From assembly GCA_051453625.1 (NCBI GenBank), contig JBOZIK010000001.1:27582359-27634905 (forward strand): a DNA stretch of 52,547 bases, in the 5' to 3' direction. Below the pieces are notes generated by a model. It worked only from the letters and a program-made list of their open reading frames with translations, had not been told where the DNA came from and did no database searches. This document shows positions 813 to 52,547 of this stretch, piece after piece (within the stretch, counting starts at the first letter, position 1; each line of letters starts with the position of its first letter). The position numbers and the translations under genes are program-made. This DNA is from Welwitschia mirabilis (taxonomy: Eukaryota).

Positions 813-1372
813 TAATTATAGGATAGCTGGCTAAATTTGTTAGTCAGTAGACTCAAATGGGTTAGTTAACCAATTTTTAACTTAGTCACCCAGTCACTCA
901 AGATTCTTCTCTACTTTGTCATTGATGTCAAAAAAAGGAGAATCAGTTATTTATTTGTTAAATATTTATGCATAAAATGCTATTTTATTTGGTATCTTAA
1001 ATCTATTTGTGACTTTTAAAATTATATGTGCTAAATATGTTTTCCTTTGGTATCATAAGTACTTAACTTGAAAATTTTAAAGTCTTTTTAATATTTGGTT
1101 TATTTGTGACATCTGATTTAATGTTAAATAAATTTACATGATCACATTATGTTTATCATAAAGTTGTGCCTCCTTTTTTTTTCTTTTAAAAAAACTTTCC
1201 AATGTGTATATTGAATTAGTTCATTTAGAGCACAAAATTTATTTATTCAAAATGCTTTTACTTGTCTCAAATGGAATATTATTTTATAGTCATTTTATAA
1301 GGGGGAGATTTTCTATGAATTCTAGTTTGTCACAACTAAGTATTGTTTGCTATCAATATCTAAAGAGGAGAT

Positions 1373-2429
1373 TATTAGATTATATTTTGTCAATTGATAT
1401 TAATCTAATGTTCTCTATATAGTAAATTTTATGTATCTTGTACAAAATATGTTAAATTACTTGTAGGTTAAAAGATGAAACTAAAATTGTCAACTTCTAA
1501 GCATTAGAAACCTATTAGTTCATTTACCCTTAAGAGGGGTCAACCAGATTTTGATGAGGTTGACTGGACCTATAACTTAAAAAACTAGTTTCTCATAATT
1601 GAATAGAAAAGAGTCGACCAGACCTTTATGGGATCAACTGGATTTGAGAACCTAATAAATAGTATCCCTAGACTAAATAACAAGGGGTTGACTAGACATA
1701 TAATGAAGTCAACTGGACCTAAGCATTGTGTAGCTGGTATGCTTGAAATAATTGTTATGAAGTCAACCAAACACCTAAAGGGATTAACCAGATTCAATGC
1801 AGAAAATTGAAAAGAAATTTTATCAAAGGAGCGGGTAACTAAATAAAGTAGCAAGTGACCAGACTAGGGTCGACTGGACCCAAATGGAGTCGATCAGATA
1901 GGGAGCCATATGAAATTGAGGTGCCAAATTTCTCACTTGGATGACCTGTGTAAACTCACAGCACCATATGTGGTCGATCAGATGGAACAAAAAGTAAATT
2001 TTTCTAAATGTTATGTATCTATTATATAGCCATTAGGTAACTATTTTCTAGCTATTTATAGTAGTTGAAAGCACATTTCAAATGTAAGAAACCCTAAAAG
2101 CCTTTCATTATAAAGGGCTAAGACATAGATGACCAAAGTATCTTTTGGAACCATTTTCATTTAGAAAAATCTATTGGATCTGAAGGATCCAGCATTATAT
2201 TTGGAGTGACTTTTACTATTGTATCTTGGCATCTATATTTCTAACCGAAGGAGATCTACTATTGGCATCCTCTCTACATTCAAGAATGGATTAAGAGCTT
2301 CATTTGTTTTACTTCTAAAGGAGGAGAGCTCCATCAAATTTACTGATTCAAGAACGAGTGATATTCGTGCTCTAAAGGCATCATTACATCACTACCTTGC
2401 TTTGTGAAAGGTTGAGACTAAGCCTTAAA
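1373..2429 (+). mobile_element. SIRE 3' LTR, copy 1, truncated by assembly gap
   Basis: Follows degenerate PPT TAAAGAGGAGAT (1361-1372) and an upstream extra PPT AAGGGGGAG (~1299). Collinear with the LTR at 3498-4992 and carries GGTCGAC-type motifs. Confidence 0.8.
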
Positions 2430-2529
2430 NNNNNNNNNNNNNNNNNNNNNNNNNNNNNNNNNNNNNNNNNNNNNNNNNNNNNNNNNNNNNNNNNNNNNNN
2501 NNNNNNNNNNNNNNNNNNNNNNNNNNNNN

Positions 2530-2853
2530 AATATATTATAGCAGGTAATTATTGCACTCACCTTTTATAAATGAAAGAAATGTTAAAAGATTTTGGTATT
2601 AATTTAAAACAAGTTCCTATTATTTATGATAATACAAGTGCTATTAACATATCAAAAAATCTAGTTTAGCACTCAAGAATAAAGCATATTAAGCTGAGAC
2701 ATTATTTCCTATGAGATTAAGTTGAAAAAGGACATATATCTATGAATTTTATTACTTTAGACTAATAATTGCAAATATTTTTATTAAACTCTTAAACTTT
2801 GATACTTTTCTTTATCTCAGAAATGAACTTGAGGTTCTCTCACTGTCCTATGA
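2530..2853 (+). pseudogene. Second SIRE RNase H C-terminal remnant
   Basis: Directly homologous to ~490-812 (MKEMLKDFGINLKQVPIIYDNTSAINISKN...KHIKLRHYFL), with stops. Confidence 0.88.
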
Positions 2854-3497
2854 TTGATTGCAGGACAGTCGATCAAATTTGTTATTCAATCAACTAGAAT
2901 AGATTGGTCGATTGGTTTTTAACTTGGTCGCCAGTCACTCAAGGTTCTGTAGCTATCCCAGCAATAATACAAAACACCAAATTATCATTTTTTTATGACT
3001 GTCATTTATATTTTGATTTCTTGGTAACTATTTCCTCTCTTCTTTATTATTAATGTCAAAAGGGGAAGAATTCGTTGACTTTTTATTAAATATTTATATA
3101 CAAAATGGTGTTTCATTTGGTATCTTAAATCTTTTTGTGCTTTTTAAAATCATATATAGTAAATATGTTTTTCTTTTAGTAACACAGGTACTAAACCAAA
3201 AAAGTTTTGTAGTCTGTTTGACATTTGGAAATAAACCAAAATTTGTCACATATGATTCAATGTTAAATAAGTTTTCATGATCACATTATGTCTATCATAA
3301 AGTTATGTATTTTAAACTCTCAAATGTACATATTAAATTATTTAATTTTGAGCACAAAATTCATTAGTTCAAAATGATTCCACTTGTTTCAAATGGAATA
3401 TTATTTTACAAATAGGCATTTTGTAAAGGGGAGTTTTCTATGAGTTCTAAATTATTACAAATAAGTATTGATTATCATCAATATCAAAGGGGGAGAT

Positions 3498-4992
3498 TAT
3501 TGAATTATGTTTTACCAATTGATGTCAAACTAATGTTTTCTATATAGAAAATTTTGTGTATTTTATACAAAATATATTAAATTACTTACAGGTTAAAAGA
3601 TGGAACTAAAATGGTCAACTTCTGGGCACTAGAAACTTGTTAGTTCATTTACCCTCAAGATGGAGTTGACTGAATTTTCAAGGGTTAATTGCACTTGAAG
3701 CAGATAGAAAATAAACTATATTCAAAGGGGTCAAACAAATTTTTAATGGGATTGATTAGACCTATAACCTTAAAAACTAGTATCCCTAAATTGATTGAAA
3801 AGGATTCGACTAGATCTATATGGACTCGACTAGATTTGAGAACTTTATAAATAGTATTCCCAAACTGAATAACAAGGGATTAACCAAATCTATAATGGGG
3901 TTGACTGGTCCTGAGCACTATGTAGCTAGTGCACTTGAGCTAATCATCATGGGTCAATCAGAGACCAAAAGGGATCAACTAGACTCAATGCAGAAAATTG
4001 GAAAGAAATTTTATTAAAGGAGCGGACGACCAGATGAATAGTAGGTAATTAGACTAGGGTCAACTAGACCCAGATGGGGTTAACAGGATAGGGAGCCATA
4101 AGAAATTAGGGCAACCAAATTTCTCACTTAGTCAACTTGTGTAACTTATGATACCACATGGGTCAACCGAATTTTTATGGGGTTAACCAGACGGAGAAAA
4201 ATAAATTTTTTCTAAACATTATGCATCTATTATATAGCTATTAGATAGTCATTGTATAGTCATTTATAGCCGTTGGAGATGAATTTAAAATATAATAAAC
4301 CCTAAAAGCCTTCCAATATAAATAGCTAAGACATAAATGATAAAAGAATCTTTTGAAACTATTTTTATTTAGTAAAATCTACTGAATTTGAAAGATTAAG
4401 TATTAGATTTGAGTGATTATCACTTTTTGTATCTTGGCATCCATATTTCTGATTGAAGGAGATCTACTATTAGCATACTCTCTACATTCAAGATTGAATT
4501 AAGAGATTTAATTATTTTACTTTTATAAGAGGATAGCTCCATCAAATGTACTGATTTTAGAATGAGTAATATTTGTGCTTTTGAGGCATTATTACATCAC
4601 TACACTATTTTGTAAAGCATTGAGATTAATCCTTAAAAATTCTATTCTAAAGGTTGAGACTAAGCCTAGAAAAGTCTATTTGTAGAGGTTACAGTAAACC
4701 TAGAATACCTAATGGAGTAAGAAGATCTAAGATTTAGCTTGGGGATAAGCTAATCATCAAGAGTAAAGTATGGGATTTCTCGAACTACTATAAATCCTAT
4801 TTGCATCAAATTGATATTTTTGTGCTTTTAGTTTTTATTTCTTTACTTTTATTATTTTTCTCATTGTGTACATTCTAAATTAGTTCATTTTTATATGCAA
4901 GTTTTTGTTTCAAATTGAATTTATTTACAATATTGTATTGGATTTTTTTAAAAGAAGCTATTCATCCCCCTCTAGGGTTCTCAATCCTATCA
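3498..4992 (+). mobile_element. SIRE 3' LTR, copy 2 (~1.5 kb, complete)
   Basis: Preceded by Sirevirus PPT signature TCAAAGGGGGAGAT and upstream PPTs (~3058, ~3427). TATA-like TATAAATAG at ~4317. Ends with C-rich CTATTCATCCCCCTCTAGG...CCTATCA. Confidence 0.85.
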
Positions 4993-5176
4993 GTTGTAAA
5001 GTTTTAAATCAAATTTATAGGATTGTAATCTACCTCTTTTTATTTTAACTCATTTAAATCTTTGATAATTTAGCCTACAATATGATTTTCTTTTGATGTT
5101 GGCCAAGTTTGACTAACATCTGCAAGTTCTTCTAATTTTGTCCAAGCATTTTCTAAGATGGGGTTCATAAAGTTTC

Positions 5177-5600
5177 CACTACAAGAGAAATCTATAAGTT
5201 ATTTTATGTGGTGATTTAAACCACTATAAAAGTAGCTTACATAGTTCTTATCATGAAAAATCATCTACCAGATTAGAATGGGTTCCTATAAAGAAACATT
5301 CATATGTGGAAGCGTACATACAATATAGGTAAAAGTGGGCGCTACCCCATAGTATGGTGGGCCCTACCCTCAACAACAGGAACACTGCCCCGTATGACAG
5401 TTATTGAGGTGGGTGTATGCATGGGTTGGGTTGCTAATGAGGGGAGGGAAGGGAGGAAAAGCATCATGGTTTCGTGTTAGTGCCTCCATGAAACCATATG
5501 TCACAGGTTAGTGTTAGGTCCCCGGGAGCATTTCAGAACAAACAACGCGTACGCGTCACCTGTACATGTGCTCTGTGCCTGTACTATAATCTTTATTTAG
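5177..5600 (+). mobile_element. CACTA (En/Spm) left-end remnant
   Basis: CACTACAAGAGAAA at 5177 matches the CACTA TIR consensus and is followed by a short GTGGT/ACCAC inverted motif. No partner TIR identified. Confidence 0.5.
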
Positions 5601-26639: not shown

Positions 26640-26979
26640 AAGGAATATGTAATTTTCTTGTAAATTGGTATTATGATTATAATATCTATCATTTGTATCT
26701 ATCTTTTAAATGAATCTAAGATTTTTAACAGTGCTCATAGCTAGAAGACTTTTAGTATAGTGGTGATCTAGTCCTCAATATAATAATCCAAGCTAGATTA
26801 GTGTATCACTAAATAGCAATAAGGCTTGGAAGCAATGGAAGAATTATCAAAAGGAAACTAAAGAGCATAAAAGCAAGCTCCTTAATCTTCAAATTCACCT
26901 ACCATGATACCCTTTTAATAATAGGAATTTTTCAAGACATACTCTTTCTTTAAATGTTCTTGGATCTAACTTTATAGTA

Positions 26980-27870
26980 ATATGACAATTTCTTACAAGG
27001 AAAACAAGACTCTATCACCAAGTTTTTTTAATGATCTAAGTAGTTAAGCATAATCCAATTAACATAGGACTCGAAATCCTTGGTAAGATCCAAGGCATAA
27101 TAGTCTAATAATTTTAGAATAAGCAATTTTTTTTTGTGTGGAGAATACTAAGTTTTGCTTGTAGATACTTCCATTTTATACTTTATAGTTCCATCATAAC
27201 ATTTTTTGCTATATAAACATGCACTGTAATGTAAATGTTACTAATGGCTTAAGATACTCCAATCCATGTACACTTCAAATTATTGTTTTTGTGTCCATTT
27301 TCCCACTTTTTTGAGAAACATCCTTAAAATAATATAGTAATCATAGTATGAAATGTTTAATAGCTAATGTATTGAAAAGTTATTCATCCACATTAATCAC
27401 AATGTTTTACATAATGGCCACATTCATATGATGATTGATTGAAATCCCTTACTGAATATGAGCATTTACCATGTAAGCATTATTTACATTAATCCAAAAT
27501 ACTAACTTCTATTAAGATTCATGCCTTTCAAATTCATAGCATTTAATTTTTTAATATGAAATATTAGCCTTTTTATTAGATAAGAGGAATTTTGTATCTC
27601 AATCATGTTGTAAGGACTAATATATTTAGGATCAGAATTGAGAAAAATTACTTATGAGTCTTATAATTAATCTATATTTTCAATGTCATCTCATGGCTAA
27701 AGGGGTTTTCTACATCCAAATCTCTAGTGAGTAGTGGTAGGGGTGAAGTTAAATTTGCATTATGCTCTAAAATAAGGCTTTGCTTCTTTAGCTTCAAAAC
27801 AGATATGCAATAAGCATCTTACTATTTCTTCAAAAAGTTTGATGGCATCAATAGCAATTAAGTAATATGA
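26980..27870 (-). pseudogene. DUF547-domain intron-less fragment, tandem unit 1
   Basis: KLFEEIVRCLL...GLEYLKPLVTFTLQC...ILKLLDYYALDLTKDFESYVNWI. Homologous to units 2 and 3. Confidence 0.85.
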
Positions 27871-28785
27871 TAATCTCTTACAAGATGAATGACAATATAT
27901 CACTAAGTTTGACAATGATTCAAATAGTTGAGCACAAATCTAGTTGATAAAGGACTTTGAATTCTTAATAAAATTCAAGGCATATCAATCTAGTAATTTT
28001 GGAATAAGTAATTTTTTTTTAGAAATAACACCAAGTACTACTTGTAGATTCTCTCATTTTGTAGCTTCTAATTCCATCCCAACTTTGGCTATTATACAAA
28101 CATGCATTGTAATGCAAATGTTAGCAATGACTTAGGACACTGAAAGTCCATACACACTCTAAATTGTTGTTTCTGTGTCCCTTTTATCACTTTTTAAAGA
28201 AGCATCTTTAAGATGATATGACAGTTGTGGTATGAAATGTTCAATATATAATGCATCAAGAAGGTATACATTCACATTAATTATGACCTTTCACATGAAG
28301 GCAATCATCATATGATGATTGGTTGGAATCCCTTACTTAATGAGAGCATTTACCATGTAAGCATTATATACATTGATCCAAAATGTTAACTTTTGTTGAA
28401 GATTCATGCCTCTTAAATTCATAGTATTTAATTTTTTAATAAGAAATCTTCACCTCTTTATTACATAAGAGGAATTTTAAATCTAAGTTATGTTAATGAA
28501 ATTGGCGCTGATATTATGAAGATACTTATAAGGACCAACGTCTTTAGGATCAGAATTGAGATAGATTCCTTATAAATCTTATAAGTCATCTAGATTTTGA
28601 ATATCACCTCCATGGTTTGGAGTTCCTTTTATGCCCAAATATTTAGTGAGTAGTGGTAGGTATGAAGTAAAAGCTACATTGTGTTCTAAAATAAAGCTTT
28701 GCTTCTTTAGGTTCAAAAAAGATATACAATAAGCATTTTACTATTTCTTCAAAAAGTTTACTAGCATCCATAGTAGTTGAGCAAT
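27871..28785 (-). pseudogene. DUF547-domain intron-less fragment, tandem unit 2
   Basis: SKLFEEIVKCLL...DPKDVGPYKYL...[30 protein letters not shown]...IEHFIPQLSYHL...MELEATK...LLIPKLLD*YALNF. Shows DUF547 hallmarks KLAFWINxYN, IEHFILRLPYH and IPKLLDWY. Confidence 0.9.
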
Positions 28786-29166
28786 ATGACAAACTCTTAC
28801 AAGAATAATAATACTCTATCACCAAGTTTTACAATGATCTAAGTAGTTGAGCACAAATTGAGTTAACAATAAACTTTAAGTCCTTATCAAAATCTAAGGC
28901 ATATCAATCTAATAATTTTGGAATAAGTAATTTCCTTTTAGGAATAATACCAAATGCTACATATGTATACTTCCATTTTATAGTTTCTTCTTTCGTCATG
29001 ACACTAGTTGTTATACACACATGCACTATAATGCAAATTTTACTAATGGCTCAAGATACTCTAGTTCATACACACTTCAAATTGTTGATTTTCTATCCCT
29101 TTTACCACTTTATAGAGAAGTATCTTTAAAATGATAAGGTAGTCATAGTATGAAATGTTAAATAGG
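28786..29166 (-). pseudogene. DUF547 unit 3, 3' half (separated from its 5' half by a CACTA insertion)
   Basis: I*HFIL*LPYHFKD...LEYLEPLVKFAL*C. Joins seamlessly to 43859 when 29167-43858 and one TSD copy are removed. Confidence 0.87.
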
Positions 29167-29174
29167 TACCACAA

Positions 29175-33100: not shown

Positions 33101-36100
33101 CAGTTTAGTTTTTTGTCCTTTAGGATGTTAATTAGTTCTAGAGTTACACTAATTAGACCTAGAGTTTATGACATCCTTACTATGAAATTTACATTAAAGG
33201 AAATACATCAAAATGTTTAAGGGATGTTCAAAAATTGTTAAAGTATAAAGCAAGCTGGTTAGAAATCATTTTTTTAATGTTTGAATTTTGGGTGAGTACT
33301 ATTCATAAAAGGGTGGAAAGGCATGCATGCTAGGATCATCACAAAAAATTCTATTCATTATTGTTCTTCAAATTGAGCATTACAACTATATTAAATTATG
33401 AGAAACCTATAGAATCCATGAATCTTAGGCCCTACAACAAAAAGAGTAAGGAATAAGGGATAGATTTGGCTTAACCAAAGAATGAAGGCATGACTTCTTC
33501 TTCACTTTAAGAGTAGTGAAACCTCAAACTTCCTGCATAATCTGGCTACTATCACATGTGACTTGATTTATCTTACCCTACAAGAAAACATTTAATAGTG
33601 ATAGAAAAATAAAACAAGAAGGACAAATTCAAAAAACATAAAGAAAATAAAAGAAGGAAAAAAATATTTTTATGAATAAACCTTCATCAAGGACAAACTT
33701 TATATTTGTATGTCATGTGTGGAAATGATGACCTTAAAACTTGGAAATTAAAATATTCTCTATCTTATGCATTACAACCAAAATGGGAAAAAAGTTGAAA
33801 CTCAAACTTTCAAATCTTTCATCAACTCTGCTTTTAAAACTTGAGTGCTTCTAGACTTTAGCAATAGTGTCTTACAAACTTTCAAACAAAATACTCAAAT
33901 ACTCTAGTCTTAATCTGTGCTCCTTTATCTTATTGAAGTTTATCTTTAGGAGAGTCACTGCTCATCATCAATGCGTGAAGATGCATATTAGTTGAAGAAA
34001 CAACATAATAAGGCTACTGGACTACCACTGGACATACCTCATATCTTTTGATATATTCTAAGATTCTTGACTTTAGTGGTTGGCAGAGATATTTTCATGG
34101 AAATTTTTAAATAAGGAGTTAGAGGGAGGATGTGAATGCCAAAAAGGAAAGATACCTATTTGTCATTTATGTACACCTACTTTTTAAATTTAGCAATGCA
34201 GGCTGTGTACGTACCTTTATTATTGCATATCTTACATGAATTCCATTATGTTCTTTCTTTCTTGTTCCTTGATCATGGGTTTTCTAGTGTATTCTATAAA
34301 TTCTTCTCTACCAGAAGCACATTGATATAAGTCTTTTGATATCTAATTTTTTTAATTTAAAATTAATTCTATAAGATAAATTTTATTCTTGGAACATGAA
34401 TTGTTAGCTCTTCCATGCCTCCACTGAAGTGTCCTATTTTGATTAGTAATGTTGGAACTCCATTATGTATTATAGCATATTTTCCTCCCATTAGGAAAGA
34501 GTTTGTATTGCCTCAATTAGTCATACTCTATGAGAAAGAAGAAGAAACTTCTCAAAGTTTTTCTTCATGAGGAGTCCATATGGGTGGCTACCGGTTGGAT
34601 CAATCATTTGTTATAAAATGAAAATAAATAGTGTTGAATCAAGAAACGTATATCCAATAGATCAAGAGAAAAGACACAATGATATTAATTGGAAAAACTT
34701 TTTAATGTAGAGGTAACATCCATGGGAAAAGAGGTTAGAGCACTATAACTTTGCAATAGAAAAATGAAAATAGACATAAGAAGCAAAGATTTCCAACTCT
34801 TNNNNNNNNNNNNNNNNNNNNNNNNNNNNNNNNNNNNNNNNNNNNNNNNNNNNNNNNNNNNNNNNNNNNNNNNNNNNNNNNNNNNNNNNNNNNNNNNNNN
34901 NTGCATACATACATGAAACCAAAACTGCAACACCTACATCTTCTTATCCTTCATTAGTATTCATCATTTCTGTGCTTATCAATAATCACACAACCTAGCC
35001 CAAGGAAAAGAAAGAAGATTGTTCTTAGTAGGCTCGATTCTCTCTTCGAGGATTCCAGCCTTACTACCATAACCTGTAAGACTGTTAAGGTTTTCATGTT
35101 AACAGTTATCATGGTTCTGAATCCAAAAATGGCTCTAGTATAGTAGAGAAGAATGGAAACACTGACTGTGTAGAGAAGAAGGAGGAGTCATTTTATGACC
35201 ATAGGTATTATGAAAATGTTAGCTAAAAATGTTAGTTGAAAATATGCTTCTAAACCAAAAAGTTGCTAACTTTTTCAAAATATCAGCTAAAAATGTCAGT
35301 TAACTTAAAGATACTTTTAGACTGAAAAAAGGTACATGTTTTCCTTTTTTGATGACATGTTACCCATTTTAAATCTATGGCTAATAAACACTTTAAGATG
35401 TTATTACATAACATTGAATTAAGAAAAACAAAATTAAGTAATCATAATAAAGTTTTTTTAAGGGAGAAAGGAGGTTATCATGTAGTGTTGTTATGTTCGG
35501 ATCAACATATTAAATAATAAAAGAAAAGAATATCATTTGGTTATATTCCAGTGATAATTGAAGATGATAACAACTTTCTTTTGAATACTACCAATGCTAG
35601 TTTCTTTCACATATAACAAACCAATAGATGATAAAGTCCTTTAGCTTTAATTATATGTAGTTATGATATAAATGCTTTGGGGTTTTGCAACAACTAATAT
35701 ATAAGATATGGGCAAATAAGGGAAGTTAGTTTGTAAGATTTATTATTGAAGATCATGGATCATAGTCCCATGAACATATAGTAAACAAGGAGATGTATTA
35801 GATATTCCTTGTTTTTAATTTATCTTATATTACAAAACAAGTATTTTTGTGATTCATGTCATTTAACATAGAAGAAAAGGAGAGGCATAGAAATCCATCA
35901 AAAATATTTGGTTATATTCATGCTAGTGGGAATGAAAGATGATAATGTTTTATTATTGAAGATCACAATTTACGGTTCCTTTAGTATACTACAAACAATC
36001 AGGCGATGAAATATATCCCCTATTCTACTTCTATATTATGTTAGAAAATAGGTATTCTTATGGCTTGTGATGGTCTATAATGAAGAAAATGATGGCTAAG

Positions 36101-38175: not shown

Positions 38176-38799
38176 AATAGAGAAGAGACTTACACACAAT
38201 GGGTCAAAAGGAATAGGGAACAAAATACTTACTACTTAAAACCCTAAGATAAAGTCTAAAATATGATGGCCAAAATCAAGAATCTTGAATTCTCAGTTCT
38301 TTAAATGTTTCTCAGTAATTTCTATATAAATGTCTTTTAAATATACATAAAATAATAAAGTCCCCATAAATAAAATATTAAAATCATTCAAAGAAATAAA
38401 GCCTCATCCCTTAAGTACAAAATTAAGATTTTGATACCTTCTGCTAGATTCAAGTTTGGGAGTAAGACATTCATGCTAAAAATGTTCATGAAGTATTATT
38501 AGGCAGCACAATTTCTCTTATATTTCTTAACTTCCTTTGATAGACATGAATTCTCTACCTTAATGGAAGCCATTTTGGTAGAATTATGACTGATAAATTC
38601 TGATTTTGATTCCAATTTTACCTCAAGACACATCAACCCATCAATTATTTTCTTTTTGTCTTCAACCTAATTTAGTAAAATTGTGTTCTCTTTTTGAAGA
38701 GAAATATTACATTTAGCAATTTTATCCAATTCTGTAAACTTTGAATTATTATTAAAAGCATCACAAATAGCTTCATACTTTGCACATTCCTCTACTAAA

Positions 38800-41700
38800 A
38801 ACAAATTCTTATTAAGAGAATCTTTCAATAATGACTTTATCTAAGCTAAATCCATTTTTAAACTCTTACCTTTAAGAAGTAAATGTTAGTTTTCTTAGCA
38901 AACAAAGGAATGAGGAAATGTAAAAAGGATGCAAAAATTAAATGATGTAATATATTTTCTTCTGGACTAGAAACAAAGTAAGTGTTATAAACCAAACTGT
39001 AATAGACGTGATAAAGTAGTGATAATAAAAACAACCTTAAAAATAAAAACTTGTGTTTGAATCAGACCCAAGTCAAACTATTAAAAAGTAGAGGAAACAA
39101 TTGAGCTAAAGTAAAGTGGTACACAAGCAGTAACTAGTGAATATTAAGGAGAGATTTAAAAAGCACTAGTAAAGTCTAAATTTTCTATTCTTATAAACTA
39201 GGTATTACTAATAAATATTTTGATATAATACATATCCTAACTTCACACTAAATCATCATACTAGTCATAAGACAAAGCTAGGTTATGAAGTATTATGTTA
39301 ATGACTCTATAAGTGCTTATCTAAGAACTGAGATTTTAAAAAGTTTATTACCATGCATGGAAAATCTAAGGCCCTCATCACATCTTTTAACAAAAGATGC
39401 CTACAAAAAAGAAGCTTGTATTTAAACTAGTTATAACCATTACCAATTATAGGATCATCTAAATGCTTGTAAATTTTATTTTGCTAGAAATGAAAAGTTA
39501 ACAAGTATTTGACTAATAAATAATTAATATTTAATAAAAAAATGAAAGGAATGTCATCAGATGCTTTAAGCATTATCATATCTAAATAAAACTAGATAAT
39601 AAAACTCAAAAGGCAATTTCAAAAATGAAGAAGCTCAATCAACTAATAGGGACCATTCAAAATATCAATGAATTCATTAGCAAGAATCATCCTAAATATT
39701 TTATATCAAAACATCTTTAACTAAAAGTACCAATTCAAATTTCCCAAAAGAGAAATCATTTTCAGAAGTAATCAAATTATACTAATTAATATAAAAGCAT
39801 TATTCTATTTTTGAACTTATCCAACTTAAATCATAAAGAATATTTTTGACATTTATAAGAAACAATGCTATTAGTGAAGTAGCACTAAAACAAAAAGAAT
39901 AACTTTGGCACAAAAATATTCTAGAGGTAATTGGGTAGGAGAATCTTTATCGAGAAATGTGATGTATCTTGTCTACCATTCTACTTTTCTTGAACCCCCG
40001 TTTTCCTTTAATAAATAAGTGAATGAATGGATGATATTCCTATAACAAATCCACTACACTGACCCCTTAACATCTTCATGCTATCATCATAGGATACCTG
40101 ACTTAAATACCATGCATCATCCTATTCCTAGCACTCATGTTTTAGTCAATAATTTCAAACCAACAGATTCTGTTAACATGTGGTAACTAAATTCTATCCT
40201 TTTCTCAACTCCATTTTTAACATGTTTATTCTAGCACTTTGATGAGATTTTATCAAATATGCATCAGTGATATTTTTGTCTAGTTCCCTTGAATTATGTT
40301 GCATTGGTATACATCCAATGAATATGCATTTTATTCCAATGTTAAGAAGTATGGTATGTTCCCCTTCTAAATCATATCCATTTGCTTTGCTTTCATTTGC
40401 TAATTCNNNNNNNNNNNNNNNNNNNNNNNNNNNNNNNNNNNNNNNNNNNNNNNNNNNNNNNNNNNNNNNNNNNNNNNNNNNNNNNNNNNNNNNNNNNNNN
40501 NNNNNNCTAAAATCAAATTCTTATTAAGAGAATCTTTCAATAATGACTTTATCTCAGCTAAATCCATTTTTAAACTCTTACCTTTAAGAAGTAAACGTTA
40601 GTTTTCTTGGTAAACAAAGCAATGGGGAAATGTAAAAAGGGTGCAAAAATTAAAGGATGTTATACATTTTCTTCTAGACTAAAAAAAAGGTAAGTATTGT
40701 AAAAAAAAATCCAATAGATGTGATAAATTAGTGATAATAAAAACAACCTTAAAAATAAAAAGTTATGTTTGAATCATACTTAAGTAGAACTATTAAAAAG
40801 TAGAGGAAAGAATCAAGCTAAAATAAAGTAATACACAAGCACTGACTAGTGAATACCAAGGAGAGATTTAAAAAGAACCAGTAAAGTGTAACTTTTCTAT
40901 TCTTATAAATTAGATATCTTGATATAATACATACCCTAACTTTACATTAATCATCATAGTGATCATAAGACAATGCCAAGTAGTAAAGTATTATGTTAAT
41001 GACTCTATAATTGCTTATCTAAAAACCAAGATTTTAAAAAGTTTATTGCCATGCATGGGAAAACTTAAGGCCCTCAATGCATCTTTTAACAAAATATGCC
41101 AACAAAAAACAAGCTTGTATTTAAACTATTTATGACCATTACCAATTGTAGGATCATCTGAATGCTTGTAAATTTCATTTTTCTGGAAATCAAAAGATAA
41201 TAAGTATTTGACTAATAAATAATTAATATGTAATAACCAATTGGAAGGAATATCATCAGATGCTTCAATCATTACCATATCTAAATAGAACAAGACAATA
41301 AAACTCAAAAGACAATTCCAAAATGAAGAAGCTCAACCAACTAATAGGGGTCATTAAAAATATTAATGCATTCATTTGCAAGTGTCATCCTAGATTTATT
41401 ATATCACAACATCTTTGACTAAAAATGCCAACCCAAATTTCCCAAAAGAGAAATCATTTTCAGAAGTAATCACAATTATACTGATAAATATAAATGCATT
41501 GTTAGGTTTCTAAAATTGTCTAGCTAAAGTCATAAAGAATATTTTTAATATTTATAAGAAAGAATGCTATTAGAGAAGTAGCACTAAAACAAAAAGAATA
41601 ACTTTTAGACAAAAATATTCTAGAGGTAGCTCAGTGGGAGAATTTCTATTGAGAAATGTGGCATATCTCATTTAGCATATTACTTTTCTTGAACCCCTCT

Positions 41701-42103
41701 TTTCCTTTAATAAATAACCAAATGGATGAATGGTATTCTTGTAATGAATCTACTACACTAACCCCTCAACATTTTCATGCTATCATCATAGGACACCTTA
41801 CTTGAATACCATGTACCATCCTATTCATAGCATTCATGTTCCATTCAATAATTTCAAGCCAACGGATTCTATTAACATGTGTAACTAAATTCTACCCTTT
41901 GTCTAACTCCATTTTTAACATGTTTATTCTAGCACTTTAGTGAGATTTGATCAAACGTGCATTAGTGCTATTTTTATTTGATTCCCTTTTATGTTGCATC
42001 AATATACATCTAATGAATATGCCTTTTAGTCCAACATTAGGAAGGATGGGATGTTTCCCCCTCCTCAATCATTTTCATTTGATTTGCTTTCATCTACTAA
42101 TTC
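38800..42103 (+). repeat. Tandem duplication across gap: ~38800-40406 repeated at ~40510-42103
   Basis: Both copies start AAATTCTTATTAAGAGAATCTTTCAATAATGAC and stay collinear with scattered substitutions. Confidence 0.9.
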
Positions 42104-42950
42104 CCTAATTATTAACTAAATTTCACTATGACTTATTATCTAAGTTTGAGCACATAAATTTTTCTCATCATGCTTACCCCAATTCATCCATTTTAAAACA
42201 TGTACCTCACTAAAATACTTCTTTTTCTTCCCATGTGATTTTTTATTTTTCTCATTCACACCGTCTATTAGTGGTCAGCATGTTTTCTTCTCTACTAAAA
42301 TGGATAGAATGTTATTCCTTCTTACATGTCAGATTTGTCAAATAGCCATCTCCACTATAAAGAATTAAACACAAAAAAAAATATTACTCTTTTGAGATGA
42401 CCAACAATCTTCCTTTTTTCTTAAGTTGGGCATTTCACGATTTGTTAGTCCAATTGCACATTCTATTCTTCTTAGTGGTAGATAACCATGCCTTCTCCTC
42501 TGACTCATGTGTTTTCTTAACAATAATGTATGTAAGCATTTCATTCTTCTCCTCTCACTCAGCCCTTTATTCCTAATGTATGTTGCTATAAATAACTCAT
42601 CTATGCAGTGCATTCATATCAAGCTTAATAATCATAATTTTTTATCCATAAAAGCCCCTTGTAAGCAAATCATTTTACCTACTTAACAACATATGTTATG
42701 ATATTTTATTAGATAAAGAATATTTTTGATTGGCCATTTGTGGAAATGGCTAATATAAGAAAAAATAACTTTGGGACAAACCAATATCTATAAGAACATA
42801 TCCTTCTCTCTTTTCTTCAACCACCATTTTTGCTATAAAATCCTTCATTTCCCATAGTATTGCCTCTTGAATCTTTAGCCAAGCCAAATCTTATGCCCAA
42901 AATGCAATAAAATATTTTATCTACTTGAAATTAGACTTCTAAAATTTATT
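39950..42950 (-). pseudogene. Probable decayed copia pol fragments
   Basis: Short motifs only: KCIFIG (integrase-adjacent), RRHGYL (LWHRRxGHL-like) and DIGLSQ/FVP-like segments. Weak. Confidence 0.35.
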
Positions 42951-43858
42951 TTCTCTTTTCCTAAAAAAGAGGAAGTCATTTATTTTGAAGTTATGTACAT
43001 GGCATTTATTATATCAAAAATAAGAACATCTCACCAAATGATGAAAAGTTCTATAGATCCAACTACCTTGGCTGATCTGTTATGAAGACATTTATGTACT
43101 CTTAAATTCAGAAACTTGGGTACCAACAAAGATTTAGCAATAATTTCCTTCTAATTCCTGAAACCTAGATGTATATCTTTGTTAAACTTTTGAAAGAAAC
43201 ATCAAAAGTTTTAGCTGGAAATCTTACAGGAAACAATTGACAATCAATATGATAGTGATAAATATAACCTTTGACCTTCAATCCCTACCTGCAATCACTG
43301 GTTTTCAAAGTCTGACCACCAACGGCACTGAAATTAAAGGTAGAATCTTTGAAAATGCTAGCACACCCATCATACTTTTAAGTATTATTTTCTACATTAT
43401 AGTTCTGAAAAATATTTTTAAATGCTTGACTAATCAAATCTTCTTCAAATTCTTGCCTTGTCATTCGATGCTCCTTTTTCTTGAGTCTCGTATAAGTTTT
43501 CATGTGGTTGTGGTTGCCATGATATTCCATAAATATTTTCTTTAATTTACAAGAACTTCCTGTGCACACATCAACAAGCTGCAGCATTAGGGCAAATGAA
43601 ATGTGTGAAGTAAAACTGAAGCACGTGAAATGTAAAAGGATGTCTCTTTTTATGTAAAGCAACTAAACTATTTAAGAACTGGGTTTTTTTTAATTTTTTT
43701 TTGCATTGTTTTTAAGGTGTTTATTTTAAACAAATGCCTGAAAAGGATCTCGAATAGCTCTTTTTTTAAGGCTTTTATTATAATAAATGCCTTAAAATGC
43801 TTTATACTTAAAGTACTTATTAAAATAAATGTCTTAAAATCTTATATTTCTCATAGTA

Positions 43859-44995
43859 AGCTAATGCATTGAGAAGGTATCCATCCATATTGATCACAGC
43901 CTTTCACATAAAGGCAATCATCATATGATGATTAATTGGAATCCCTTACTTAATAAGAGCATTTACCATGTAAGCATTATATACATTGATTCAAAATGCT
44001 AACTTCTATTGAAGATTCATGCCCTATAAAGTAATAGTACTTAATTTTTCAGTAAGGAATCTTAATTTCTTTATTATACTAGAGGATTTTGAATCTGAGT
44101 CATGTTGATGAAACTAGCTCTTATATTAAGGACCAACATCTTTAGGATTATAATTAAGATAGATTCTTTATGAATCTTGTGAGTCATCTATGGAATATCA
44201 CCTTCATGGTTGGGACTTCCTTTTATGTTCAAATATCGAGTAAGCAGTGGTAGATATGTAGTCAAAGCTACATTGCATTCTAAAATAAGGCTTTGCTTCT
44301 TTGGCTTTAAAAATGATACATAATAAGCATTTTACTATTTCTTTAGAACGTTTGCTAGCATTCCTAGTTTTTAAATCCTTGAAGTAAAACTTTACATGCA
44401 ATCTAGATTACAATTACAAGTTATAAGATCATGTTCTACATGTGCTTTCAATGATTATTGTGTTCTTATTTCCTTGCCTTCTACTGAATAAGGTAGCCTT
44501 TTAGGTGCAATTCTTGGTTTTGAAACTCAAAAAATAGAATTTTGCATATTTGTGATTCTATACAACTAATTCTCTTTACCATGATTAATATCAAATGAAC
44601 CTAGATTATTTTGTAATGTTTTTAATTATTTTATGTTATCTTTTATAAATTTATTATTAAGGGAATTCTTTAATGATTTCATGATTTTAGTTAAAGAGGT
44701 AGAATAATGATTTCATAATCAAATATAAGTATTACTTTTCTTTTTCTTATCCCTAATACTTATGGAGCAACATCAATGGAGTGCTCCATTATAGTGGGAA
44801 GTAGATTTCCTATACAAAATCTCTTTTATTATGTCCTCATGGACTAGGTAGCTCTAACTTGTTAGCCGCAAACTAGTCAACATTATTAATAGAATCTAGT
44901 TACCTTTTTGATAATGAAATGTAGAGAGATTCTTGATACAATCCTTGAATAATTTATTCTTCCAATCAAATAACTTCCTCCTTTAACATAACTTT
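43859..44995 (-). pseudogene. Lzipper-MIP1 / DUF547 retrocopy, 5' part (unit 3)
   Basis: LKEEVI*LEE*IIQGLYQESLYISLSKR (MIP1 leucine zipper, cf. LEEEVVRLEEQVVxFRQGLYQEAVYISS), HGKEN (~44570), SKRSKEIVKCLL, and [12 protein letters not shown]...KAVINMDGYLLNALA. No introns visible. Confidence 0.87.
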
Positions 44996-45548
44996 AACTA
45001 ATTCAAAGAAAATTTCTTTGAAAAGTTTATCTATTGGGCTAATAAAATCTAAAGAATCTACAATCACCACATCATATTTCCTTTTGGGAGAGTCCTTTAG
45101 AAATGCTACTCCATCACCAACATGAATAGTAGCTTCGAAATCCATAGTAAGGCTAGAAAGAATTGTTCAGAGATATTTATAAATTATATTCACATCATCA
45201 ATTTCACATATGTTAATATGCTCCATGGGCTATTCCTAAATACTTCATGAAGTCCTCCACCATCTCCACCACTTGTAACAAGCACATTTTTGACAGTTGG
45301 ACTAGAGAAAAGGGGAAGATGGGGTATCATCTATTGATAGGAATATTCATTCTTTTCAATCAGCTAAATGATACCTTAAAATATAAGGACTGTGTCATAA
45401 ATTACTGATTGAAACATCATTACGTCTTGATACTCTAATTGACTTTGATATAAGATTTTCTCCACTTTTAAGGAATCAACCTCACTAGGCCACATGAAAC
45501 TAACTTTAATCAAAGGATATGAAGGTTAGGCTTTACTTATGTATCCAT
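44996..45548 (-). pseudogene. SPDS: Spermidine synthase processed pseudogene fragment (N-terminal ~two thirds)
   Basis: MWPSEVDSLKVEKILYQSQLEYQDVMMFQS...SYQ*MIPHLPLFSSPTVKNVLVTSGGDGGGLHEV...CEIDD...IHVGDGVAFLKDSPKRKYDVVIVDSLDFISP..LFKEIFFE. Continuous across positions where plant SPDS genes carry introns. Candidate ATG at 45548 with a CTT-rich leader. Confidence 0.93.
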
Positions 45549-46058
45549 GGCATATATAGAGAGCTTACAATCAAAAGAAGAAGAAGAATGGGTGCTTACA
45601 TTCTCTCATTTTGAGTGCCACAAAATTGTTTAAAAGAGGAGCATTGCTATGTATGTTGATCTTACTATTATGTTCTTTACCAGAGAGGTAACAACCACCA
45701 TGAACTACTACAATGTCCTGGAATCCTGGAATGCTTTATTATAAAAGCCATGAAGAGATAAGATGGAAAGATTATCAATTGGATGATAAAGAAGGTTATA
45801 ATCCTTTAGTCAATTAGCCTGTTAATTCAAGTATTCTTTCTTAACTATCATAGACTTGTGTATTTGGATAGACATCAAAGTTTAATCAAACTTCTACTTC
45901 AAATCTACTTCAATCATCTTCATTAGTTAACTTCTTTGGTGCTAAATCTACACACTTTGATAACATGGCTTCATATGGTTTACTTGGTCTTGACATCTAA
46001 AGCATATTTTTATCTAGTATATTATCTAAGAAAAATCTTGTGGTAAATTCCTTTTCAT

Positions 46059-46153
46059 TTTATGTATAATGCCCATATTGTAAAATGCCTTAGCATATAT
46101 GAGCCTTTGGATTCTACCTTTTCATAGTAGCTAAGAGTCAAATCATATTGCAT
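46059..46153 (-). pseudogene. SPY: SPINDLY-like TPR fragment (may extend ~45800-46330)
   Basis: MQYDLTLSYYEKVES-(frameshift)-RLIYAKAFYNMGIIHK versus recalled SPY MQYDNALSCYEKAALERPMYAEAYCNMGVIYK. Confidence 0.72.
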
Positions 46154-46704
46154 CCTACAAGATTTGAATCCTATGGCATTCTTCCTTTCTATCATTTCTA
46201 AGCAACCCTAAGTTTATCTGCTATGTGTTTGTCATACAAAACTGCATTACAATATCCCAGTTTATACAACTCTAAAATTTCTTGAAACACATATAATTAA
46301 TCTCATCCTTATCTTGTGCATTAAAGCTATATTATAATAATAGATAAGAATAATTACTTTTTGCTAGGTAAGATTCTAGATAAATTTTAAATCCATAATT
46401 AGTGATTGAGCATTATCACTATAGTCAGCTATAACATTATATTAGTATTTGACTACTTAATATTTATTCTACATTCTTATAATTGTTGATGTTCCTTTAC
46501 TATAATTTACTTAGTGTTGAAACTACTATAGAAATGCATTAAATGACATCATTACATCCATCATCATCATGTAATAAATCCATTTATATGAGAAACAATG
46601 GCTACATGTTTATGAACTGGTAATACATAACCAATTACATTTAAATTTATATCTATAACTTCAAAAATTATTATGTACTTATTTGTCTAATATTAATATG
46701 TGTA

Positions 46705-47550
46705 GGTCATGTAATGAGTATGCGAATGGCGTAAATAAGTTTAACAATTATTTTAATTCTTAGTGCATACTCTGTCCATGTGTGAAATGCTATAACACAT
46801 TTTGTTAATAGTCAAATATAGCTTTTTAGCATCTTTTATGCAAATGCATGAATCATATTATGTAAGGGAGAACATTAAAAGAACACTATGACCAATGTAA
46901 TGGTAAAAATATAATATAATATGATCCTATTTCCATGGTGAAATAATTCTTTATGTTCTTTAATTATGGCAAGCAATTACATGAAGGAAAAGACACCAAG
47001 TATTTCTCAAATTATGATAATTTCAGTGGTGATGTAAAAAAATAAAAAATACAATAATTTAATCAAAGAAGCTAACGAGCCATTGTACCTTAGTTGCACA
47101 AAATATTAAAAGATTTCTATGATTATCAAATTGGTTAACATCAAAGTAATGTGTTGATGGTAAAATTCAACATTTTTAATGTTGCTTGATCTCTTGCATG
47201 ACTCTTTTCTAAAAGGTAATACAATTTCAAGTTTTTATGATTAATTGAAAAGTATACTTCACTCCCTAAATATGAAATGTAATAAAATACATGCATGCCC
47301 TAGTGATTATGTCTTACATTAGAAGGATCATAACAAGTAACATGAATGTCCTCAATGTAGCGCATCTTGATGGATATTATAGAAAGGTCCCAAAGATAGT
47401 AAGCTAGACAAAAGATTATTTGCCAAAGTATTGCAACACTTTCTGTTAATTCCAAGGCTACAAAAGCTTTATTCATCACCCATAATAGTTAAAACATATG
47501 ATATGACATTCAAAAAGGTAGATAGACCATGGCATTATGTGTCATTCAAT
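46705..47550 (+). pseudogene. CACTA TnpD transposase N-terminal remnant (Transposase-associated domain and following region)
   Basis: EYANGVNKF...ILCPCVKCYN...HLLC; LIKEANEPLYLSCTKY*KISMIIKLVNIK...LLDLLHD; KIHACPSD; LIPRLQKLY. Confidence 0.85.
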
Positions 47551-47999
47551 AGATAGACTATGCTAATAGACCCTTTTGTGGATAGCTTTTCAAAGTTAGA
47601 AAACAAGAATTCATCAAAAATTTATTTAGTCCTAATAGGACAGATCTCAAGAGTAGGACTACAAGTTGAGCTAACTTCATTTTTAGAACATGTACCTCAA
47701 AGTCCCAAAACAAAATTCCTCTAGCTCATAAAAGAAAGAGAGGAGAATCAAAGTAGCTAAGGGTTCCTTCAAGAGGGAGAGGCAGAAGCAAAGAGCAAAT
47801 AACTTAAAAACCAACACATACAGAAACTATAGATTTGAACGATCCTAGTTTTACAAGAAGAACAAAGGAAAATTAAAGCTTCCTTGGAATAAGAAAAACA
47901 ATTAGCACAATTGGCTAAGAAATTAGAAGAATTATAGTTCAATGAAAAGAATCCTTTTGTCTTTAAAAGGAGAAAAAAATTGGTAAGTCTATTTTTCTC

Positions 48000-48002
<3 letters not shown>

Positions 48003-48059
<57 letters not shown>
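48003..48059. repeat. (TA)n microsatellite
   Basis: Direct reading. Confidence 0.97.
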
Positions 48060-48063
<4 letters not shown>

Positions 48064-51000
48064 GGTCTAACAAAATCTTGAGCTTAGGGAAACTGATAAG
48101 TAAATATAATGATGTAAACTTTTCTTATTAATGAAACATTTTTATTCTTATAATTATATATTTGAGATGGTACTTGATATTTCTCTTTTGCATTGAGGTT
48201 ATATACTAGTCAGTTAAAAGATTAGTTAGCTAGTATATTAGTAGGTTATCTTATAAGTTATATCATTATGTTACAAGTACAAAATGCCATTTAGCATGAG
48301 GATGAGAGAGAAGACCAAGTTGATGGAAACATAGCAACAACTCCAACCATACACCTATTCTTTAAGATCAAAGAAAGGAAATGCCAAAACAGAAACAGGC
48401 TAAAGCAGTATAAGAAGGAGAACTCCACAAATATTAGGAATCTTTTAGCAAAAAGGCTCTAGAAATAGAGCTAAATCAGAGGTCACGTGAAAGCTTCAGT
48501 TATCCTGAAGAGGGTGCAGTAGAATCTCAAATGTTCTAATGTTACCTATAAAGGAAAATACAAACTTATTAGTACATGTCTGTATAACATTCTAGTATTT
48601 TAATATAAAGCTAAAAAGCTAATATTCTTAAAGTACTGTGACCATGTTTTATTACTTAAAAAAGTAATATTCCTTTTTTACTTGCTTCTGCTCATGCAGT
48701 TGAACATGAATTAGGGTAATTAGTAATACTTAGAAATAAGTATTATTTAGCATTTAATGAAACTCCTATTATGTTTTTCCCTTTTTTCATTCCCCCTATG
48801 TAACATATGTATATAGCAAACTTATCAATTATTAACCTAGCTAGTTCAAGTAACTTCATCATAAGATTATGTTGATGATTTATTTCGAACTAAATGGTTG
48901 AAGTGTTAGTGTCTCAACTAGTTATTTATTAAACTTTTAATTTTTATTTAATGATTACGATTATTTTAGTTTAATAACATCATATTTTTTTTGCATTTTT
49001 TAGCATAATTTGTTACTATTTTTTGCAATTATTTCATAATATAAGCTTTTATCACCTCTTTAAAAAAAATTCTATGAGTAGAATTATTAAAATCTCATGG
49101 AAATTTATTCATAATTAGGATTATATTATAACTAGACATAATAACAAACAAAAGCAAAAGATGTTTTATATGCTTAAAATATAATCCTAATATACATTTT
49201 TCTAAAGAATAAAGTAGAAATATTTACATAAGTCAACTGAGTCATTATGTAGCCTTTGAAGCTCATAAAATGAAAATACAATGTCAAAAGATTAAATAAA
49301 GTTAGTCTTATTTGGTAATTACAAAAATATGTTGATCTTTTGATAGATGATGAAAAATCTAGAATTATTAGTATTATAGATAACATGTATTTTCTAGGAT
49401 TAAAAGGGCTATCATTAGATTTCATTACTAATGAAAACTCATACGAATGCTACATTAAGAAACGACTTTCTGATTACCATAAAGAATGTTCATTATGCTA
49501 ATTTAAATTTATAAGTTGGTAGTATTCCATTTTTTTCAATTTTAGGTATTGAGTTTATTAACAAGATAATGGAACAACACTTGATTATCTATATTACATA
49601 CATACATGATGATGGGCTTGGACTTCCAAAAACAAAGTTCATCAAACTTTTGAAAATTAAATATGGAGCCTAATCAGTGATGTTTAATGCAATTAATAAA
49701 CTATTAGTAGAAATGGGACTTTCAAAGGCAAAAATTGGCTGTATTTAGACCAAATGAGCATCAACAATGAAGGGTCCATAAGAGGGGCTAGCTACGAAGT
49801 TGGTTTATGAATTTCTAGATTTCTTACTTGTACATTGCATAACACATCATTAAGCTTTCATCATAGCTAAAGCTTCTGTTCATTTTCTAGATTTTCAATT
49901 AGCTAATAAAGATTGCAAATAATGCTTACACATGATTATGGAAGTCTTTAAATAGAAATTTTACATTTTAACAAATTAAGTAAACTCTTTTAAGGAGATA
50001 ACCTTTCTTCAATGGAATTGCAAATAGTGCATTGGTTAGCTAGATGATAAGTAATGTTAATGCTAGTCAAACTGATACCTACCATCTTACATAAATGAAG
50101 AGAAGACGGTAATGGATTGTATGAGCAAGCTATAATTTTTCAAGTTTAATTTTGCATCTTCTTACTTGATAATGTCTTAATAATGATAAATGAATTAAGC
50201 AAAAATTTTCAATTACAAGGTGGTGACATAACATCAACACAAACACAAATTCAAGTTCTTTCCCTACTTTTTGGTGGAACTCATACATCTAATTTTTTAA
50301 CAATGCACAATTTGTGTTTTTAGAACTTGTTGATAAATCAAATGTCATTCAGAAATATATGTTAAGATTTGAATCTATTCCCAAAGCACTTGGATTAGGT
50401 AGTTTAGAATCTTATATTGAATTAGGAAAATAATTTGTAATTAAAAGTTATCCAGCATCTCAAAAAAAAGTTTGGAGTAGAAATATCTTTCAAGCAGCAA
50501 AATTATTCAGTCCTTATTCCTTCAATGATGGAGATACATTAAGAGATATAGAATTAAGAAAATGGTTAGAATGCTTATGTAGTAAGTTTGATCTCGGAAG
50601 TACCTTCTCATTATAAGAAAAATTTATCTTAATGAGATGGAGGAATGCATTATAATGATGCAAAAAATAGTTTCAATATAACCTATTAAATGTAGGATAA
50701 GATGTAGATAAAAAACATAATGGTTAGAGTCATTTCCAAATATTATGAAACTTTGGCAAGCTCTCCTCACACTTGTCACAAGAACTACTAAATGTGAAAG
50801 AGGGTTTTCCAAATGAAGGGAATTGGAAAGAAATTTTTGAACTATGGACTAAGCTGAGAAGTGTAGTCCTATTTCTCTTGAAATGAAACTACTAAGTTAA
50901 ACAATTTAAAATTAAATTTATTAGGTAAGCATAGTAATTTCGAGTCATTCTATTTCTTTTAATTTAACAAGTTAGAGGGACTTTAACAAGACATGCGGAT

Positions 51001-51283: not shown

Positions 51284-51546
51284 ACGTGTCAACTTTAAAA
51301 TGTATTTGGACAATGCTTATCAACCACAAAATACTACCTTGTCTTTTCGTGTCAAATTCGTTCACTGTTAAGAATGTCTTGACTTTTCAAAATCCGGAAA
51401 CGCAGTAAGTTGCAGCGTCTCTTTTTGACCACGTATACAATTTAATTCTGGCTGGGAGTCTTCCATTATTGAACGCACGCCAGTTAATGCCGATCCCACT
51501 CACTCTCGCTGCCATTGCCATTGAAATGTGTAATTGCTATATAAAC
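51284..51546 (+). promoter_or_regulatory. Proximal promoter of the beta-glucosidase
   Basis: TATATAAA at ~51538-51545, about 90 bp before the ATG. ABRE-like ACGTGTC at 51284; W-boxes TTGACT at 51379 and TTGACC at 51425. Confidence 0.6.
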
Positions 51547-51629
51547 AGCTCTGGAACGGCAACTGCATCACCACCATCGTTCTCTCATATTCTTTCATTC
51601 GGCAATTGCAAAACACTGCTCAAGCATTG

Positions 51630-52547
<918 letters not shown>

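Follow-up and report, generated by a model that had tools for sequence, protein, structure and literature searches.

Here, we describe a chimeric pseudogene on the minus strand of a 52,547-nucleotide stretch of Welwitschia mirabilis DNA (contig JBOZIK010000001.1; this whole stretch is called the window in the following). In the chimera, the 5' part of a spermidine synthase (SPDS) coding sequence runs directly into a part of the coding sequence of a plant MIP1/DUF547 protein. Both halves are intronless and strongly decayed, and we conclude that the chimera is very probably a processed pseudogene, whatever made the join. The join itself was probably made by a reverse transcriptase that switched templates between the SPDS and the DUF547 mRNAs.

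Identity of the two halves

The plant SPDS P0004, which comprises 363 amino acids (aa), was used as parent proxy for the SPDS half. When this protein was compared with the window by tblastn, we obtained three collinear pieces, which cover aa 34-54 (45605-45543), aa 55-191 (45546-45148) and aa 168-250 (45226-44981, frame -2). The parent alignment is secure for aa 34-250 (45605-44981) and the N-terminal 33 codons were assigned by eye from the translated frames. Here, an ATG at 45701-45699 begins a weakly recognisable SPDS N-terminus. Pfam scans of the read-through translations detected Spermine_synth (PF01564, E=1.6e-14) and, slightly upstream and in another frame, Spermine_synt_N (PF17284, E=1.5e-8). 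Spermidine synthases of the PDB matched the SPDS half with E-values down to 3e-11. Word-based protein searches with decayed queries yielded one relative each, and a representative protein search with an SPDS-containing query returned 142 relatives, 10 of which were inspected and all of which (10/10) turned out to be SPDS-like. The 44 residues on the SPDS side of the join reached a score of 151 against P0004, and none of 2000 shuffled sequences scored as high. On these sequence comparisons, the identity of the SPDS side is beyond doubt. The catalytic domain of the copy is incomplete, since Spermine_synth spans aa 127-313 in P0004 and the copy stops at about aa 245-246 and carries several disabling lesions (Table 1).

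Upstream of the ATG, two RNA runs (X12 and X15) showed read depth in the bins 45698-45845, with loose read ends at 45743 and 45795. Since RNA reads match the patch between these two positions, some 5' untranslated region (5'UTR) of SPDS was presumably copied along with the coding part.

As parent proxy for the DUF547 half we employed P0147, a plant protein of 656 aa that was retrieved with the DUF547 stretch as query (72% identical). According to Pfam, P0147 involves an Lzipper-MIP1 domain (PF14389, aa 48-129) and a DUF547 domain (PF04784, aa 438-568). The first tblastn piece of this protein (aa 107-167 at 44989-44816, 66% identity) lies in frame -2, which is the frame of the last SPDS piece. 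It is followed by further collinear pieces covering aa 167-204 (44819-44706), aa 206-417 (44703-44086) and aa 314-493 (44380-43859). The DUF547 half extends 1.1 kb downstream of the join to 43859, where it stops abruptly beside a high-copy AT-rich repeat. PF04784 was also detected in this half itself at about 43856-44023 (E=1.2e-7; 32.2 bits compared with a cut-off of 27), as a partial match to profile positions 3-57 of 125 with stops inside. The zipper remnant at the join corresponds to roughly the last quarter of the Lzipper-MIP1 domain. This short remnant alone gave no Lzipper-MIP1 match in Pfam at E<=10, and its identification depends on the pairwise match to P0147. A GTAAC motif that follows the residues LSKR was considered as splice donor and rejected, as it represents the parental Q139 mutated to TAA.

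The junction

In the original prediction, SPDS and an Lzipper-MIP1/DUF547 protein had been proposed as partners, joined in frame and without spacer at about 44990-45005. The tblastn comparisons with P0004 and P0147 and the shuffle tests indicate that both parents were rightly named, and the two high-scoring segment pairs (HSPs) at the join share one frame and overlap, as expected for an in-frame join without spacer. The junction was located at about 44990-44996, which is within a few bases of the earlier estimate. SPDS can be followed with certainty up to GTT at 44998-44996 (V245), and DUF547 from GTT ATG at 44992-44987 (A106, V107) onwards; the single AAA codon between V245 and A106 can be assigned to neither parent. 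When the minus-strand frame 44887-45223 was read with stops as X, the SPDS-like stretch continued unbroken into the tail, which contains a TGA (44968-44966) and a TAA (44956-44954). These two stops had been attributed to deamination of CGA and CAA, and they do lie on a parental arginine (R114) and a parental glutamine (Q118).

The 31-residue tail reached a score of 79 against P0147, and none of 5000 shuffles scored as high. Its score against SPDS was 26, and 652 of 5000 shuffles were as high. Thus, the sequence left of the join is not better matched by the SPDS C-terminus. A continuation of SPDS into the tail had been considered since a HMMER alignment to human SPDS extended to residue 93, since several library matches passed the join and since Pfam reported no Lzipper-MIP1 domain. 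This reading was ruled out because none of ten SPDS proteins was matched significantly by the tail alone in the shuffle tests and because there is a same-frame DUF547 match 1 kb downstream. At the breakpoints, Spermine_synth (aa 127-313) is cut at about aa 245 and Lzipper-MIP1 (aa 48-129) at about aa 105.

The join is also spanned by contigs of DNA runs from two studies. One contig (X1) matches 44589-45175 with 0 differences. The other (X3), which comes from a separate study and has a different organism label, matches 44589-45553 apart from 2 differences and 1 gap. These data indicate that the join is real DNA and not an assembly artefact.

Absence of introns

The SPDS half accommodates aa 34-250 in 625 nucleotides (nt) and the DUF547 half aa 107-493 (387 codons) in 1131 nt. 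Both halves fall a little short of the corresponding coding sequence, which leaves no room for an intron. For the SPDS intron map, metagenome contigs were scanned with P0004, and 75 loci (L001-L075) with SPDS relatives were obtained. Introns were present in 33 plant-like loci of the 75, at conserved sites near aa 81, 106, 148, 181-190, 207, 231, 296 and 340, and GT..AG borders were visible. The SPDS copy in the window is uninterrupted at the first six of these sites (aa 81 to 231). In 27 of the 33 intron-bearing loci, aa 240-252 are spanned by one unbroken match, and an intron within aa 238-254 was found in none of the 33. Thus, the SPDS breakpoint is exon-internal, about 15 codons into the conserved exon aa 231-295, and this location argues against a chimera made by splicing. 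Multiple introns are also described for the SPDS genes of pepper and tomato in excerpts of two reports (PMC12427771, PMC13025490). Taken together, the lack of introns in both halves indicates a retro-derived (processed) chimera.

Decay and expression

For quantification of the decay, we used a frameshift-aware alignment that was written for this analysis. In the SPDS half, 129 of 204 codons (63.2%) were identical to those of the parent, and the corresponding number for the DUF547 half was 232 of 372 (62.4%). Judged from these codon identities, the two halves look to be of the same age. In total, the chimera carries 21 stops and 11 frameshifts, and the lesions in both halves are mostly of the C>T/G>A type. 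Among the 17 stops of the DUF547 half, 14 lie on parental glutamine or arginine codons (9 Gln, 5 Arg). The commonest replacements were V>I, E>K, T>I and S>L, together with Q>stop and R>stop. When the parental RNA reads of run X12 were compared with the window, 18 of the 25 kinds of difference had A or T in the window and G or C in the RNA. The window has a GC content of about 28% and a CpG observed/expected ratio of 0.18; the values for CCG/CGG and CAG/CTG are 0.17 and 0.56, respectively. This base composition is extreme for a plant-like genome and fits heavy methylation-driven C>T decay. Since the replacement spectrum, the RNA-read differences and the CpG depletion agree, the decay is driven by cytosine deamination.

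Four runs were compared against 43700-45900. The region 44600-45400 was present in DNA runs of three studies and no RNA run was listed for it. In two RNA runs, of each of which about one quarter was read, the depth over 44144-45031 was 0 and no read crossed the join. Most of the RNA reads on 43700-45900 matched in part only, namely 215 out of 230 in the one run and 175 out of 186 in the second. The reverse-complemented loose ends of these partial reads encode residues identical to P0004 beside the matched patches, and thus the partial reads represent parental SPDS mRNA.

Sister copies of the DUF547 half

Comparison of the window with P0147 (tblastn) and with itself (self-blastn) revealed further DUF547 pseudogene pieces at 27-29 kb. 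They form a tandem array with units of about 0.9 kb, which are intronless, cover aa ~316-619 and are 75-77% identical to one another. At the DNA level, 28249-28774 is 81.7% identical to 43862-44368 of the 44-kb copy, and 27362-27848 is 74.3% identical to 43859-44361. In a three-way alignment, all DUF547 copies carry the same extra T in a T-run, which causes a +1 frameshift near aa 335, and stops at Y385, Q464 and R478 are common to all three. Over the common stretch, these shared disabling lesions account for 4 of the 10 found in the 44-kb copy. A stop at Q444 is present in two copies only, which indicates that some parallel C>T changes do occur, and the shared frameshift is therefore the firmer marker. 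From the shared frameshift and stops we conclude that the DUF547 sequence was already dead when the copies separated, 18-26% nucleotide divergence ago.

Table 1. Positions of the chimera, its parts and associated sequences in the window
Feature	Position	Strand	Remarks
Sister copies, tandem DUF547 C-terminal pseudogene pieces (aa 496-618, 318-619, 316-618)	26976..29168	-	tblastn with P0147 and self-blastn
High-copy AT-rich short repeat	43700..43850	.	Adjoins the 3' truncation of the chimera; contig word depth
MIP1/DUF547-derived part, parent aa ~106-493	43859..44992	-	17 stops, 7 frameshifts; 1134 nt for ~388 codons
DUF547 domain remnant, parent aa 438-493 of 438-568	43859..44026	-	Pfam PF04784; ends at 43859
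Lzipper-MIP1 domain remnant, parent aa ~106-129	44930..44992	-	TGA at R114, TAA at Q118, 3-codon deletion aa 121-123
Chimeric junction	44990..44996	-	SPDS and DUF547 HSPs overlap by 9 nt (44989-44981), frame -2
SPDS-derived coding part, parent aa ~1-246	44993..45701	-	4 stops, 4 frameshifts, intronless
Putative SPDS 5'UTR-derived sequence	45702..45845	-	Presumed extent; patch 45743-45795 matched at least 90% by parental SPDS RNA reads

Origin of the chimera

The arrangement described above fits a template jump of a reverse transcriptase in several respects: the two partners have the same orientation, there is no spacer, the 5' partner reaches the start codon and the 3' partner lacks its 5' part. 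According to this scenario, a retroelement reverse transcriptase would have started on the DUF547 mRNA at its 3' end, would then have jumped inside the SPDS mRNA and would have continued to the SPDS 5' end. The resulting chimeric cDNA, consisting of SPDS from the 5'UTR to about codon 246 and of DUF547 from about codon 106 onwards, would then have been integrated. The integrated copy would have decayed by C>T/G>A changes (methylation-driven) and small indels and would never have been detectably constrained. Part of the DUF547 half may have been duplicated to 27-29 kb and tandemly amplified there, and the 44-kb copy would later have lost everything beyond codon 493, beside the high-copy repeat. 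We infer the template switch itself, the type of reverse transcriptase and the order of these later events.

The following points weigh against such an origin. Microhomology at the join is not readable without the parental nucleotide sequences. No poly(A) tail, target-site duplication or flanking pair of long terminal repeats (LTRs) was found around 43859-45850. Because the original 3' end is missing, the absence of poly(A) at 43859 is uninformative rather than contrary, and the hallmarks of integration are uncheckable. Neither a repeat search nor self-blastn showed direct repeats on the two sides of 43859-45850, limits that may differ from the true ends of the insert, and in the 52.5-kb window as a whole self-blastn found no direct repeat pair, and with it no LTR pair, bracketing the chimera. 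Pfam scans of 38 open reading frames and of the read-through frames of the window detected zero reverse transcriptase, integrase, transposase or other transposon domains, and thus none near the chimera. Splicing is evident for the SPDS half, and for the DUF547 half we deduce it from the missing room for introns. The number of SPDS introns varies among plants, since a survey in wheat describes an SPDS gene that has just one intron (PMC9618216). Finally, a join of two neighbouring retrocopies at the DNA level would give an identical present-day sequence.

For such a DNA-level join, SPDS and DUF547 processed pseudogenes would have had to insert separately, close together and in the same orientation. 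A later deletion or end-joining would then have removed the last third of SPDS with its poly(A), the spacer and the beginning of DUF547, with the frames left aligned by chance. Alternatively, an SPDS cDNA fragment might have served as filler DNA in the break repair of a DUF547 pseudogene. Both variants together are rather unlikely in our view. In their favour, the window is rich in local rearrangements and duplications, the DUF547 retro-sequence occurs in several copies without SPDS, an in-frame result has a chance of one in three, and there are no integration hallmarks that bind the two halves to one event. However, two insertions of the same orientation plus a deletion would be needed, the equal decay of the halves would be a coincidence, and DUF547 aa 1-106 has left no trace upstream of the SPDS part, nor has SPDS aa 251-363 in 42000-48000. 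Searches of this region for DUF547 aa 1-106 or 494-656 and for SPDS aa 251-363 gave only noise at E<=50. It is very unlikely that a chimeric transcript existed before reverse transcription, either as read-through or trans-spliced SPDS-DUF547 RNA or as mRNA of a true fusion gene. The location of the SPDS breakpoint some 15 codons inside the exon aa 231-295, at which none of the 33 loci has an intron, speaks against this possibility, as do the Pfam domains cut at both breakpoints. No fusion protein was found when the junction query was compared only with proteins of near length, a search of low power. What such a transcript would explain is that the halves are in frame and of the same orientation, and excerpts of one paper report fusion transcripts in plants (PMC11616359).

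The original prediction also held that the locus may once have encoded an aminopropyltransferase-DUF547 fusion. The in-frame join on which this proposal was based does exist, and the chimera still has the SPDS start codon and presumably some 5'UTR, which speaks for a chimeric retrogene that was translated, kept for a time and lost later. A join in frame is a one-in-three chance event, however, and it leaves SPDS with a catalytic domain (aa 127-313) that breaks off at about aa 245 and the zipper (aa 48-129) without the residues before about aa 105. In addition, 4 of 10 lesions are common to all three DUF547 copies, so that the DUF547 half was broken before the copies split. The decay of both halves is equal and looks neutral, and the RNA depth over 44144-45031 was 0 in the two RNA runs. 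Thus, we consider a functional past of the chimera highly improbable, and the same holds for a translated product, in which the DUF547 protein would have gained the tetramerisation domain of SPDS together with half a Rossmann fold. If this were true, a failed gene birth in a deamination-worn genome would be recorded in the death of the chimera and in the tandem copies of its 3' half. We give the least credit to the capture of fragments of two genes by a DNA transposon (Pack-MULE, Helitron or CACTA). In plants, multi-gene chimeras are commonly made by such elements, according to excerpts of PMC13317346, and the DUF547 piece is multi-copy, but captured genomic DNA retains introns and six SPDS intron sites are cleanly absent here. 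Moreover, the repeat search found no terminal inverted repeats flanking the chimera, and the Pfam scans detected no transposase domains.

Comparison with known chimeric genes

Template switching of reverse transcriptases, as we propose it for this locus, is described for long interspersed nuclear elements (LINEs) and for LTR elements, plants included, in excerpts of three papers (PMC5470649, PMC13317346, PMC2104539). These sources also provide examples: a tripartite chimeric pseudogene of Magnaporthe represents the LINE type (PMC2104539), and chimeric retrocopies of the LTR type are known from rice, Arabidopsis and maize (cited in PMC5470649). Such template-switch retrocopies and the chimera described here have in common that copies of two different cellular transcripts follow each other directly, read in the same direction, and that the product is intronless and non-functional. 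In both cases the 3' partner is 5'-truncated, whereas the 5' end of the 5' partner is intact in the known retrocopies and seems to be so in our chimera. In contrast to these retrocopies, our chimera has no surviving poly(A), target-site duplication or LTR flanks, and the type of reverse transcriptase is unassignable. The combination of SPDS and MIP1/DUF547 as parents did not turn up in our literature searches, none of which was directed at this pair.

Other chimeric genes are less similar. As far as excerpts of PMC13317346 describe it, Bs1 of maize is an LTR retrotransposon that carries spliced fragments of three host genes. It shares with our chimera the spliced host-gene fragments, the single reading direction and the RNA intermediate. 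However, Bs1 fragments reside inside a recognisable LTR element and are transcribed and translated, whereas no LTRs and no RNA reads across the join were found here. A natural SPDS fusion gene, the SPDS-saccharopine reductase of basidiomycetes, is described in PMC10051792. In this enzyme, SPDS is also joined in frame to an unrelated protein, but there the whole SPDS is present and the fusion is expressed, whereas in the window SPDS breaks off at about aa 245 of its 363 residues and the chimera as a whole is full of stops. The Pack-MULE and Helitron chimeras covered in the excerpts of PMC13317346 resemble our chimera in being multi-gene and often multi-copy pseudogenes in plants. In contrast to our chimera, which is intronless and lacks element termini, they contain genomic DNA with introns and possess such termini.

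Surroundings of the chimera

The 52.5-kb window consists of AT-rich nuclear DNA of the plant type, and scaffold gaps of N are present inside it. The repeat that adjoins the truncated end of the chimera is probably a very high-copy small element. Its summed contig word depth in two DNA runs ranged from 564 to 5209 across 43700-43850, compared with 2-40 over the chimera, and there were many alternative joints. Three of the gaps, of 100 N each (2430-2529, 34802-34901 and 40407-40506), are placed exactly where tandemly duplicated blocks meet. The blocks around these gaps (495-2429 and 2537-4637, 30148-.. and 34902-.., 38795-40406 and 40507-42103) share 76-85% identity, and they are either real diverged tandem repeats at which the assembly broke or redundant sequence beside scaffold gaps. 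At 47990-48076, there is a long (TA)n microsatellite. At the right end of the window, exons of a glycosyl hydrolase family 1 gene (GH1, beta-glucosidase-like) were found on the plus strand at 51534-52547 (Pfam E=1e-21, read-through frame). This gene extends past the end of the window and is apparently intact, with introns.

Meaning of the locus

Nothing suggests that the chimera ever worked as a fusion protein, and it represents a known kind of genomic fossil. Our knowledge of polyamine synthesis and of DUF547 proteins is unchanged by it. For annotators, a predicted aminopropyltransferase-DUF547 fusion at this locus would be spurious. The near-invariant SPDS intron sites (33 loci, P0004 numbering) may serve as an exon map for spotting other SPDS retrocopies. 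The locus itself clearly illustrates the fusion of two spliced host mRNAs in a single retro-pseudogene, in a very AT-rich, CpG-depleted plant-like genome. Because of its exon-internal breakpoint and the equal decay of its halves, it is of use as a marker of template switching by reverse transcriptases and for the calibration of neutral decay by deamination.

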